Assembly: GCA_028867755.1 (NCBI GenBank)
Contig: JAGWFT010000001.1
Location: forward strand, 1,156,727-1,220,726
Direction of reading: 5' to 3'
Origin: Nitrososphaerota archaeon
Lineage (GTDB): Archaea; Thermoproteota; Nitrososphaeria; Nitrososphaerales; Nitrosopumilaceae
DNA length: 64,000 bases
Both the position numbers and the translations under genes were made by a program. Positions 56,372 through 60,342 of this stretch are shown in pieces. The first letter of the stretch is position 1. The number at the start of each line of letters is the position of its first letter. A model generated the notes under the pieces. The model was not told where the DNA came from, did not search any database, and worked only from the letters and a program-made list of their open reading frames with translations.

Positions 56372-56611
56372 TTAACACTGTGCAAGAAGAATTAGTGTAG
56401 AGCGTACCCCATCTATTCTTCTGATCTTTTCAGAAACTGTACTGTTGATTTCATCTATTGTTTTAGACTCTATTTCTGCCACTATATCATAATGACCTTC
56501 AGTGCCTCGCGCTTCCTTTACTCTGTCTACAGATTTCAACTCTTCAAGTACTTGTTCTTCTTGTCCATAATCACATGCGATCATAACATACGCGGTTGTC
56601 ATGGCATTCAT
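56372..56611 (-). CDS. Stand-alone Lrp/AsnC ligand-binding (RAM) domain protein
   Basis: AYV.I..V.E....G.YDIVA....I..I.GV.ST..L. Confidence 0.88.
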   Translation of the reverse strand: MNAMTTAYVMIACDYGQEEQVLEELKSVDRVKEARGTEGHYDIVAEIESKTIDEINSTVSEKIRRIDGVRSTLILLAQC

Positions 56612-57787: not shown

Positions 57788-57919
57788 ATGAGAAAAGAAT
57801 TCTGCCACATTTGTAAAGAGGGAGGCAAGCAGTGCGTCGATGTAGATACCAAAGAAGAAGTCTACATGATGATGTATAAAGTAAGATGTTCAAAATGTGG
57901 AGCACCTTTGGTGACCTGA
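57788..57919 (+). CDS. Small zinc-ribbon protein (43 aa, not in track)
   Basis: MRKEFCHICKEGGKQCVDVDTKEEVYMMMYKVRCSKCGAPLVT; two CxxC motifs. Confidence 0.7.
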   Translation: MRKEFCHICKEGGKQCVDVDTKEEVYMMMYKVRCSKCGAPLVT

Positions 57920-57990
57920 CTCCCTCGTTATTTTGTGACTAGTTTAGAAGATTACCAGTCAATTAATCCTCTACTGTTGTAATAGATATC

Positions 57991-58566
57991 ATGACAACAA
58001 TAGTAGGAATCAAGACAAGAGATGGAGTAGTCCTAGGCTCAGATAAAAGAGCAAGCAAAGGATTTTTCATCGGATCAAAAATAGTCCAAAAGATTGCCAA
58101 GATGGATGAAACACTGGCAGTGGCAATAGCAGGCCAACTCTCTGATGCAGAATACATAATCAAAGTTGCAAAAGCAGAGAGAAGATTGATGGAGCTCAGA
58201 AGGGGATTTTCTCTAACTGTCAAAGAATCAACTAGGTTGATTGCAAATCTAGCATATTCTGGCTTGAGAAACTATCAACCATACTATGTAGAGTTGCTAG
58301 TGGCAGGAGTAGACCAGCATGGCTCTCATGTATATGCAGCCGACATGAGTGGTGCAATCACAGAAGAAGATTTTGCCTCGTCAGGTTCTGGATCTCCTAT
58401 CGCATATGGAGTACTAGAAAGTCTATACAACAAGGAGATCAAAAACGAACAAGCAAAAGAAATTGCTTCGCGAGCTGTTGCTGCTGCAATGGAAAGAGAT
58501 CCAGGCTCAGGTAACGGCATAGATGTACTGGCAATACCTGCCATACCAAGGGAGGTTACAGCATAA
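57991..58566 (+). CDS. psmB: 20S proteasome beta-type subunit without propeptide
   Basis: MTTIVGI, D17/K33 equivalents (SDKRAS..QKI), SSGSGS, RDPGSG; in-frame TAA at 57964 and no earlier start. Confidence 0.9.
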   Translation: MTTIVGIKTRDGVVLGSDKRASKGFFIGSKIVQKIAKMDETLAVAIAGQLSDAEYIIKVAKAERRLMELRRGFSLTVKESTRLIANLAYSGLRNYQPYYVELLVAGVDQHGSHVYAADMSGAITEEDFASSGSGSPIAYGVLESLYNKEIKNEQAKEIASRAVAAAMERDPGSGNGIDVLAIPAIPREVTA

Positions 58567-59234
58567 TGTCAGACTCTGGTCCAAATTCTGGAAGGTTTCC
58601 TTTCTATGGACCTCAAGGCAGACTTGTTCTAGTAGACAGTGCACTAGAAGCAGTAAGCCGGGGATCAACTACCATAGGAATCAAGACTCCAAAGTTTGCC
58701 ATAATTTCAAGCCAGATAAAACCAACGCATCCATTGATAGAACCATCTGAGAAGATATTCTCAATTGATTATCATGTTGGAGCTACAGGTGCTGGATACA
58801 TTGGAGACATCTTGCAGCTAATTGATGCACTAAGACTTGAAGCTCAAAAGCACAAGTTGACATATGAAAGTCCGATAGATACAGACTCGCTGGCAAAACA
58901 TCTTAGCACATATCTACACAACTACACAACATATGCCGTAAGACCACAGGCTGCCTCAATAATACTAGCTGGGGCAGACGAAACAGGCATACAGCTATAC
59001 CAGATTGACCCAAGTGGCACTTTCTTTAGGGGTGCAGGCTTTGCTATAGGCCAGTCATCTGAGACAGCACTTGACGTCATAACAAGAGAATACAGTGCGG
59101 ATCTTACCCAGAAACAAGCAATTGGGCTTGCAGAAAAGGCAATAGAAAAAGCATTAGGAGAAAAACCAGTTGTTGAGACAGGAGTTGTTCTTGCAGACGA
59201 GAAGACGTTTCACAAGATTCCGTTTGGCAAGTAA
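58566..59234 (+). CDS. psmA: Divergent 20S proteasome alpha-type subunit
   Basis: FYGPQGRL..A.EAV.RGSTTIGI, EKIF.ID.HVG, VRP, DPSG, AIG; TAATG overlap with beta gene. Confidence 0.82.
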   Translation: MSDSGPNSGRFPFYGPQGRLVLVDSALEAVSRGSTTIGIKTPKFAIISSQIKPTHPLIEPSEKIFSIDYHVGATGAGYIGDILQLIDALRLEAQKHKLTYESPIDTDSLAKHLSTYLHNYTTYAVRPQAASIILAGADETGIQLYQIDPSGTFFRGAGFAIGQSSETALDVITREYSADLTQKQAIGLAEKAIEKALGEKPVVETGVVLADEKTFHKIPFGK

Positions 59235-59247
59235 AACCTACCCACCA

Positions 59248-59262
59248 TTTTTTATTTTTTTT
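59248..59262 (+). terminator. Archaeal oligo-T terminator of the proteasome operon
   Basis: TTTTTTATTTTTTTT 14 nt after the stop codon. Confidence 0.55.
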
Positions 59263-59369: not shown

Positions 59370-60089
59370 TTAATTGTACTGGCTAAAAGAATCCGTGCCG
59401 CTTTTTCCACCAGATATGGTTTTCTGGAACACTTTGGTTATCTGCTCAAATATCCTATAGGCACTTATCATGGCCTCTGCTTTGTTTTTGTCTCCTGTCG
59501 CGTTACTTTCCACTATTGCGTACCTTGACATTATTTTGAGGTTGACCTGAAACATGTCACCGTTAGACCATTGTAATACATAGTCTCCATCTCCATCTAT
59601 CAACCCTATCCAGCGTAGATTGCCAAACCATTTTCCAACCAACTTGTTTACAATTTCTTCAACCTCAATTGTAGTAGGAATATACAATTGGAGCACTTGG
59701 GAAAACTGTAAGTGTTGTTTTGATATTTTTCGAGACAAATTCTCAAGATCTAGCCTAGACCTCTTGACTAGAATTGATCTAAGATTCTTGCTTAATCGAT
59801 AACCCGTTTGAGTTTTCTCCACAAGATTGGAATTTTCTAATCTATGCAACGATCTAGATAGGCTTTGCTGGTGCATCCCAAGTTTTCTTGCAAGACCATT
59901 GAAGGTATATTGATTATCAGCCAAATCATTGTCTTGGTTTAGTATCGATAAAACTTTCTTGTCGTTTTCTTGAAAATCGTCAAGAGACATTCCAGAATCA
60001 TCATCAATTACAATTTGTACAGTCTTGTAATCTAGCGTTATCTCTTTTTCCTTTTTATCTTCAATTTCAGGTTCAATTTTATTTTCCAT
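59370..60089 (-). CDS. Winged-helix DNA-binding protein with C-terminal domain
   Basis: FNGLARKLGMHQQSLSRSLHRLE...VEK...GY.L. Confidence 0.75.
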   Translation of the reverse strand: MENKIEPEIEDKKEKEITLDYKTVQIVIDDDSGMSLDDFQENDKKVLSILNQDNDLADNQYTFNGLARKLGMHQQSLSRSLHRLENSNLVEKTQTGYRLSKNLRSILVKRSRLDLENLSRKISKQHLQFSQVLQLYIPTTIEVEEIVNKLVGKWFGNLRWIGLIDGDGDYVLQWSNGDMFQVNLKIMSRYAIVESNATGDKNKAEAMISAYRIFEQITKVFQKTISGGKSGTDSFSQYN

Positions 60090-60152
60090 CTTTCTTACCT
60101 CATAATGATCTCTTTACTTATTTAAGGGTAAACAGTATTACATCTCAAAAAT

Positions 60153-60342
60153 TGTCATGCTCCCTTGTGTACATATCCAAGAACATTTCATAATCTGTTA
60201 TTGTGCAATTCATTGATAAAATGACTAGGAGTGATTAAACCTAGTCACATGTCAATTTGGCCAAAATCTATTTACAATATAACATACAGAAATGTCAGCT
60301 AACCCGCACTATGCATGACATACATGTCATGCAACAGAGCGG
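60153..60342. promoter_or_regulatory. Cluster of TGTCA/TGACA boxes and palindromes upstream of the wHTH gene
   Basis: TGACTAGG-N10-CCTAGTCA (60222-60247), TTTGGCCAAA (60256-60265), TGCATGACA-N4-TGTCATGCA (60312-60333); TGTCA also at 60153, 60250, 60293. Confidence 0.45.

Follow-up and report, generated by a model that had tools for sequence, protein, structure and literature searches.

A 64,000-nucleotide (nt) stretch of the genome of Candidatus Nitrosotalea, a soil ammonia oxidiser (the window, taken at its full length), carries two overlapping proteasome genes, beta3 and alpha2, and a convergent downstream gene, c1, that encodes a winged-helix protein (Table 1). A preliminary description of this DNA had singled out the two proteasome genes as an atypical pair, and its account of their layout is borne out. 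The beta3 reading frame opens directly with M-T-T-I-V-G; 27 nt upstream the same frame is closed by a TAA (57964-57966), and not one ATG, GTG or TTG stands between this stop and the start, leaving no propeptide. The beta3 stop and the alpha2 start share one base within TAATG (58564-58568), and a T-rich stretch follows the alpha2 stop.

Table 1. Features of the proteasome locus, and genes elsewhere in the genome for candidate docking proteins. Positions refer to the window unless a contig (C24, C35) is named; aa, amino acids; ORF, open reading frame; bp, base pairs.
Feature	Position	Strand	Basis
beta3, catalytic proteasome beta-type subunit without propeptide, 191 aa	57991..58566	+	PF00227; kept catalytic set
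alpha2, alpha-type subunit with remodelled N-terminus, 222 aa	58566..59234	+	PF00227; start overlaps beta3 stop
c1, winged-helix (MarR/ArsR-like) protein, proposed regulator of the module	59370..60089	-	Linkage, Pfam, structure model
27-bp imperfect palindrome GTGACTAG-N12-CCAGTCA, proposed beta3-alpha2 operator	57935..57961	+	Conservation, matrix
AT-rich box AATTAAT, probable TATA box of beta3	57961..57967	+	Position only
Second palindrome GTGACTAG-N12-CTAGTCA, then TTTTATCAA	60222..60248	- (c1 strand)	Pattern and matrix scan
T-rich tract past the alpha2 stop, likely archaeal transcription stop	59248..59262	+	Read from the sequence; function inferred
Zinc-ribbon ORF, 43 aa, lineage-restricted, outside the conserved module	57788..57919	+	Coding conservation in a Nitrosotalea subclade
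Cdc48-type ATPase gene	C24: 479858-481405		
Cdc48-type ATPase gene	C24: 917867-919534		
Cdc48-type ATPase gene	C24: 254109-255704		
Cdc48-type ATPase gene	C24: 1151905-1153518		
PAC2 gene	C24: 674422		
PAC2 gene	C24: 247905		
PAC2 gene	C24: 1137640		
PAC2 gene	C35: 265575		

The genome (1.64 Mb, 99.95% complete) holds five PF00227 genes, three of them unlinked and canonical, the other two being the beta3-alpha2 pair. The canonical alpha contains GYDR...QVEYA, the canonical active beta has a propeptide that ends at G/TTTVG, and the third canonical gene encodes a beta in which Ala replaces Thr1. Because position 1 of this third type is always Ala, Gly or Ser across the sampled Thermoproteota, the ordinary particle of the phylum mixes active and inactive beta subunits. 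Five PF00227 genes in a genome of this completeness make the pair a second set beside the canonical one, as had been proposed. Each of five carriers checked, from four families, likewise has five such genes, whereas other Thermoproteota have three.

The beta3 protein scores 160.5 bits with PF00227 (cut-off 22.4) and 202.5 bits with the archaeal beta equivalog TIGR03634 (PsmB, MEROPS T1), below the cut-off of 224; it reaches 72.8 bits with the bacterial beta equivalog (cut-off 191.9) and 20.9 and 20.1 bits with the HslV models TIGR03692 and NF003964 (cut-offs 157.75 and 137). Alignment to the Archaeoglobus fulgidus beta subunit of 1J2Q confirms the reported active-site residues Thr1, Asp17 and Lys33 and adds Gly47, Ser129, Asp166 and Ser169, and the catalytic residues are invariant in 18-19 orthologues. 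The autocleaved propeptide of archaeal beta subunits, with its Gly-1/Thr1 junction, is absent from all 19 orthologues, which start directly at M/V/L-Thr-Thr with the start codon abutting Thr1 and the upstream frames short or closed. Of the five genes, beta3 has changed least between classes (about 61-66% identity versus 40-57% for canonical subunits), with a mean column identity of 72% across three classes. Since Thr following Met permits removal of the Met, and given the precedent of Anbu, loss of the initiator Met should be enough to expose Thr1 of beta3. Anbu has no propeptide and exposes its Thr1 through Met removal (PMC5666114). In a single-contig Thermoproteota genome of 2,009,313 bp (G342, locus L083), the canonical active beta itself appears to begin M-TTTVG without a propeptide, and propeptide-less active betas may occur outside the beta3 clade.

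The alpha2 protein, whose N-terminus reads MSDSGPNSGRFPFYGPQGRLVLVDSA, matches PF00227 at 146 bits, with the domain beginning at residue 30 behind an N-terminal extension and without a Thr1 nucleophile. Its core fold is retained at 34-41% identity to canonical alphas. Archaeal alpha models score it at 157-167 bits overall, the equivalog TIGR03633 giving 157.1 bits, below its cut-off of 287.35, and the bacterial alpha model TIGR03691 gives no match. The stretch GRLVLVDSALEAV aligns with the helix-H0 region. The earlier claims about the gate residues stand: the Tyr and Asp of the YDR motif are missing (its Arg remains), Ser occupies the Tyr26 position, and the equivalents of Pro17 and of Lys66, the latter in an EKIF motif, are in place.

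These changes are fixed traits of a conserved clade, as is the missing propeptide of beta3. Across Nitrososphaeria, alpha2 retains Arg10, Pro17, Gly19 and Lys66 and is without Tyr8, Asp9 and Tyr26. Pro17 is thus all that remains of the open-gate cluster Tyr8/Asp9/Pro17/Tyr26, with Ser, Ala or Arg at the Tyr26 position throughout, and the Lys66 equivalent of the pocket for hydrophobic-Tyr-any-residue (HbYX) tails is invariant (alignment column K63). The N-terminus is not decayed and carries a conserved motif of its own, G-R-[YF]-P-[YF]-F-Y-G-P-x-G-R-L-x-x-V-D-[SA]-A. The alpha signature PF10584 (YDR...FSPDGRL.QVEYA) finds no match up to an E-value of 1 in alpha2 of Nitrosotalea, Nitrososphaera-like and Caldarchaeales genomes, whereas it scores 50.6 bits with the canonical alpha and 39.7 bits with the alpha2 of Methanomethylicaceae. 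Because the signature is matched by these last two and not by alpha2 of Nitrososphaeria, the gate change arose within the history of the module and has been retained since.

Within the order, 75 of 301 genomes have an alpha2 orthologue (E-value up to 1e-45); they include all sampled Nitrosotalea, one sister genus, 43 of the 73 genomes of a Nitrososphaeraceae-like family and members of several smaller families. At that threshold the remaining 66 genomes of the family to which the window belongs yielded none, marine types included. Across the phylum the pair is present in 44 of 401 sampled genomes, Nitrosomirales among the carriers; beta3 orthologues, 58-67% identical and aligned from residue 1, occur in 25 of 32 Methanomethylicaceae and 12 of 17 Caldarchaeales genomes. 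Synteny reaches beyond Nitrosotalea. In 32 of the 33 loci that contain both genes, beta precedes alpha and the gap measures -5 to 66 nt; the remaining locus (L035) has a split alpha match. Among 80 named species loci, 79 have alpha2 directly behind beta3, including all 76 where the contig suffices. Some genomes are unpublished: G010, G011 and G017 enter the identity comparison, G010, G130 and G281 enter the 301-genome count, and the loci L007, L010 and L015 (from G010, G011 and G017) are among the 12 Nitrosotalea loci that include that of the window (L006). No claim is made solely on them.

In a phylogeny of 96 alpha and beta sequences (IQ-TREE, LG+C20, quick search), which resolves five groups, alpha2 and beta3 form one clade each, with Shimodaira-Hasegawa-like approximate likelihood-ratio test (SH-aLRT) support of 96 and 99, respectively, outside the canonical alpha, beta1 and beta2 clades. 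The preliminary description had allowed that the YDR motif might simply have been lost from a canonical alpha in this strain; the altered N-terminus is instead a fixed trait of a conserved clade. The inner branching orders of the two clades agree, Methanomethylicaceae branching first, followed by Caldarchaeales and Nitrososphaerales subclades. Taken together, the trees indicate that alpha2 and beta3 are a distinct, co-evolving pair. A profile search of 1.84 billion representatives likewise sets alpha2 apart, full-length alpha2 clusters scoring 337-339 bits against at most 204 bits for anything else. The top match in the representative search, P0196, was rejected as a relative of alpha2; it is a plant protein whose two tandem canonical alpha domains double the score.

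The third gene, c1, is tied to the pair by position. Clustering of neighbouring genes places it beside beta3 and alpha2 in 20 of 21 distant loci. The Methanomethylicaceae, Caldarchaeales, Nitrosomirales and several further families have it immediately upstream in the same orientation; in Nitrosotalea and Nitrososphaera it is downstream and convergent. In the 401-genome sample the family counts of c1 and beta3 coincide, and 14 further genomes of two other families have a homologue. We also considered c1 as the third gene of a neighbouring copper module; this was outweighed by the linkage in the 20 of 21 distant loci and by the shared operator described below.

The c1 protein consists of a winged-helix domain and a C-terminal alpha/beta domain of ~95 aa in which one Arg and two Trp residues (in the order Trp, Arg, Trp) are invariant. 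Matches to Pfam are confined to the winged helix (HTH_5, 24.9 bits, cut-off 22; MarR_2, 26.9 bits), and a winged-helix family is matched in 19 of 19 homologues. In a structure model with a mean predicted local distance difference test (pLDDT) score of 78.6, c1 resembles MarR-type chains with a Z-score of about 9. The C-terminal domain (beta-alpha-beta4-alpha) has no Pfam family, and Foldseek against the PDB returned nothing for it at E-values up to 0.001; structural comparison gave middling matches (Z 8.2-8.7), the best being the KA1 domain of 5IRI (Z 8.7), with the METTL16 VCR, COR and phosphoglucomutase C-terminal domains among the others. In the ESM Atlas the whole architecture belongs to an archaea-only group of unnamed regulators. 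The c1 protein is like MarR/ArsR-type regulators in its winged helix and in a palindromic site that would fit a dimer, and differs from them in its C-terminal domain. Homologues without a proteasome pair (L195, L197, L198 and L200, from two other Thermoproteota families) are 28-35% identical to c1. A gene for an HtrA-type trypsin-PDZ protease comes after them on the same strand in three of four loci of one family, and in one of two loci of the other the homologue is convergent to a Cdc48 ATPase gene; the c1 family may have a general link to protein quality control.

Upstream of beta3 lies an imperfect palindrome that ends 30 nt ahead of the ATG. At ~55 nt before the ATG, the palindrome is conserved in most Nitrosotalea loci and in several Nitrososphaeraceae loci; AGTCAATTAAT is invariant in an alignment of 21 Nitrosotalea upstream regions, and GTGAC-N-GTCA joined to AATTAAT stands upstream of beta3 in all Nitrosotalea, with or without the zinc-ribbon ORF. 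The AATTAAT box, centred 27 nt before the ATG, is the probable TATA box of beta3, and this spacing suggests a leaderless or near-leaderless transcript. Only two places in the genome match the pattern GTGACYRG-N9-13-YRGTCA, each of them within the module, and none matches its reversed control. A matrix derived from 61 sites in other genomes and scanned over the 1.64-Mb genome gives the beta3-side site 30.3 bits and the c1-side site 32.1 bits, the top match of the genome. The same scan gave no further credible operator that would point to a wider regulon, the next independent site scoring 14.6 bits and lying inside a 386-aa ORF. The motif recurs ahead of beta3 or of the regulator gene in Nitrososphaeraceae and, with the same half-sites, ahead of the regulator gene in one Caldarchaeales genome. 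Most likely c1 binds the palindrome as a dimer. Repression would fit this arrangement, because the right half-site touches the probable transcription factor B recognition element (BRE) and TATA box. Between the c1-side operator and the c1 ATG, a 17-codon ORF (60139-60192, minus strand) begins ~30 nt past the AT-rich box; it could encode a leader peptide or have arisen by chance.

On this evidence we favour, with moderate confidence, a second particle of the 20S type that is composed of alpha2 and beta3 and regulated separately. The three genes beta3, alpha2 and c1 would form a module kept beside the canonical proteasome genes. Met removal alone would expose Thr1 of beta3, and no autocatalytic maturation would be needed. 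Translation of alpha2 is coupled to that of beta3; the two subunits would be made in matched amounts and would assemble together into a 20S-type particle in which every beta site is active. In alpha2 the core fold persists, as do the helix-H0 region, Pro17 and the pocket at Lys66 for C-terminal HbYX tails, and the Tyr8/Asp9/Tyr26 cluster is exchanged for the motif G-R-[YF]-P-[YF]-F-Y-G-P; the gate would depart from the canonical open-gate mechanism. A c1 dimer on the 27-bp palindrome, touching the BRE/TATA region of the beta3-alpha2 promoter, and on the same palindrome ahead of c1 would hold the operon under the control of c1, most simply as an autoregulated repressor that is freed by some signal.

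Proteins that could dock on such a particle are encoded in the genome. PAN has no match above cut-off there (best 318 bits versus 500). There are four Cdc48-type double-AAA ATPases, two with HbYX-like tails (YYR and FYG), and four PAC2-family proteins, one of which ends in IYG. HbYX-tailed proteins of either type may dock at the Lys66 pocket of alpha2.

A wider statement is about evenly balanced between true and false: that several Thermoproteota lineages (soil ammonia oxidisers, Caldarchaeales and Methanomethylicaceae) run two distinct 20S-type proteases, a housekeeping particle and a separately switched one built from alpha2 and beta3 only. The second would need no autoprocessing, would have all beta sites active and a gate independent of Tyr8, Asp9 and Tyr26, and would be governed by a dedicated regulator family whose members elsewhere sit beside HtrA-type protease and Cdc48 genes.

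Subunit exchange is the alternative with the most to be said for it. Extra subunits that are swapped into a standard particle are known from Haloferax volcanii (alpha2), Pyrococcus furiosus (a heat-induced beta) and vertebrates (the immunoproteasome subunits), and beta3 and alpha2 could in the same way be exchanged into the canonical rings under some condition to give hybrid particles. The carriers checked retain all three canonical genes, the canonical particles of the phylum already mix two beta types, one without Thr1, and alpha2, its core fold intact, is 34-41% identical to canonical alphas. Against such exchange, beta3 and alpha2 are linked and translationally coupled, neither is seen alone where the contig allows a judgement, and the topologies of their clades match, although none of this is decisive. 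Since they are always linked, coupled and never alone, the two subunits would seem to need each other rather than canonical partners, and we regard hybrid rings as unlikely, if credible. An architecture other than the 20S-type barrel, in which beta3 is a homo-oligomeric protease like HslV, Anbu or BPH and alpha2 serves as a cap, chaperone or inhibitor instead of a gated ring, would account for the missing propeptide, for the M-T-T start seen in HslV and Anbu (PMC5666114 for Anbu) and for the failure of Nitrososphaeria alpha2 to match the alpha N-terminal signature. It is improbable in view of the 202.5 bits of beta3 with the archaeal beta model versus 20.9 with that of HslV, the 157-167 bits of alpha2 with archaeal alpha models, its retained H0-region residues and Lys66, and the full alpha signature of Methanomethylicaceae alpha2. 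That the pair is a decaying duplicate without a function of its own could be argued from scores below the curated equivalog cut-offs for both genes and from loss of the pair in many lineages. We consider this highly improbable: the frames are intact across three classes, beta3 is better conserved between them (58-67%) than the canonical subunits (40-57%), the catalytic residues are all invariant, and a conserved regulator and operator accompany the pair.

Several observations weigh against the separate, separately regulated particle that we favour. Because the carriers checked keep the canonical set too, the distribution does not show self-sufficiency; co-inheritance and matching trees fit a self-contained particle, although alpha2 or beta3 may also enter canonical rings. 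The alpha2 of Methanomethylicaceae still has YDR and Tyr26, making the gate change a trait of the Nitrososphaeria branch and not of the whole module. In the same family a different conserved motif lies upstream of c1, and in the window the c1-side palindrome, on the c1 strand, is separated by 133 nt from the c1 ATG downstream of it, an unusually long distance. In yeast propeptide deletions the exposed Thr1 is prone to N-terminal acetylation, a possible block for beta3 in vivo. Finally, the deep position of alpha2 in the tree is not robust: in an approximately unbiased (AU) test, a tree joining alpha2 with the canonical Nitrososphaeria alphas was not rejected (p-AU 0.145). Because the alpha2 and beta3 stems are long and this test leaves a later origin of alpha2 within Nitrososphaeria unrejected, we claim no age for the pair. 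Complex prediction for alpha2 with beta3 gave a score of 0.01 (mark 0.32) and speaks neither for nor against binding.

Compared with the canonical archaeal 20S proteasome (PsmA/PsmB; Thermoplasma acidophilum 1PMA, A. fulgidus 1J2Q), the pair shares the PF00227 fold and, in beta3, the catalytic set; alpha2 likewise has the H0 region, Pro17 and Lys66, and the best solved matches are archaeal 20S subunits. The canonical Thermoproteota set pairs a single alpha with an active beta and a second beta that lacks Thr1, all encoded by dispersed genes. Unlike it, beta3 and alpha2 are linked and overlapping, have a regulator and operator of their own, form separate clades and score below the equivalog cut-offs; beta3 lacks a propeptide, and Nitrososphaeria alpha2, unlike a canonical alpha, has lost Tyr8, Asp9 and Tyr26 and fails PF10584. 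The H. volcanii alpha2, the second P. furiosus beta and the immunoproteasome subunits are also extra paralogues beside a standard set, presumably condition-specific; they are single subunits that join the standard particle, whereas here an alpha and a beta are inherited and lost as a unit together with a regulator. The actinobacterial prcB-prcA operon has the same beta-then-alpha order, but beta3 reaches only 72.8 bits with the bacterial beta model, alpha2 does not match the bacterial alpha model, and bacterial betas have long propeptides. HslV, Anbu and BPH resemble beta3 in having no propeptide and expose Thr1 by Met removal, as expected of beta3, and Escherichia coli HslV also begins M-T-T-I-V; HslV models, however, give beta3 only ~20 bits, and these proteases have no alpha-type partner. 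Our literature search found no paper describing the beta3-alpha2 pair or the module, and a survey of new proteasome homologues does not mention the carrier lineages (PMC8665760).

Archaeal proteasomes serve as a simple model for gating, activator docking and assembly, and a natural pair that lacks the propeptide and the canonical gate cluster and keeps the HbYX pocket offers a direct test of which features matter. If our reading is correct, ammonia-oxidising and methanogenic archaea would gain a second, separately switched machine for protein quality control, which would bear on stress in soil and hot springs, and a proteasome gate would work without Tyr8, Asp9 and Tyr26, a cluster regarded as common to archaeal and eukaryotic proteasomes in general. 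Together, c1 and its 27-bp site would provide a compact, testable archaeal control circuit. Databases label the genes of the module as plain proteasome subunits or hypothetical proteins, which hides the distinction in annotation.

The 43-aa zinc-ribbon ORF, which had been proposed as an accessory factor of the pair, is present as described, with CHIC and CSKC motifs and an end 71 nt ahead of the beta3 start. It is conserved as coding sequence solely in a Nitrosotalea subclade; tblastn found it in 6 of the 11 Nitrosotalea loci besides that of the window and in no other family, and 20 of the 80 named loci have it. Given this patchy conservation, and since the conserved promoter and operator of beta3 sit between the ORF and the beta3 start, we place it outside the module, and the proposed accessory role did not hold up.

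Further upstream, 1.4 kb from the pair, the window encodes a stand-alone Lrp/AsnC ligand-binding-domain protein of 79 aa (56372-56611, minus strand); a homologue stands directly past alpha2 in three Caldarchaeales loci (L031-L033), which may be chance. A gene for a metallo-beta-lactamase-fold protein adjoins the module in eight loci of Methanomethylicaceae and Caldarchaeales (among L030-L039), divergent from the regulator gene in the former and beyond alpha2 in two loci of the latter. Three marine-type Nitrosopumilaceae genomes of about 1.6 Mb, in which the pair was not found, have two canonical-type alphas (G039, L068/L069; G060, L072/L074; G080, L076/L077), one with GYDR and the other with GYDM...MYSPDGRIYQVEYA; this looks like a lineage-specific duplication of alpha.

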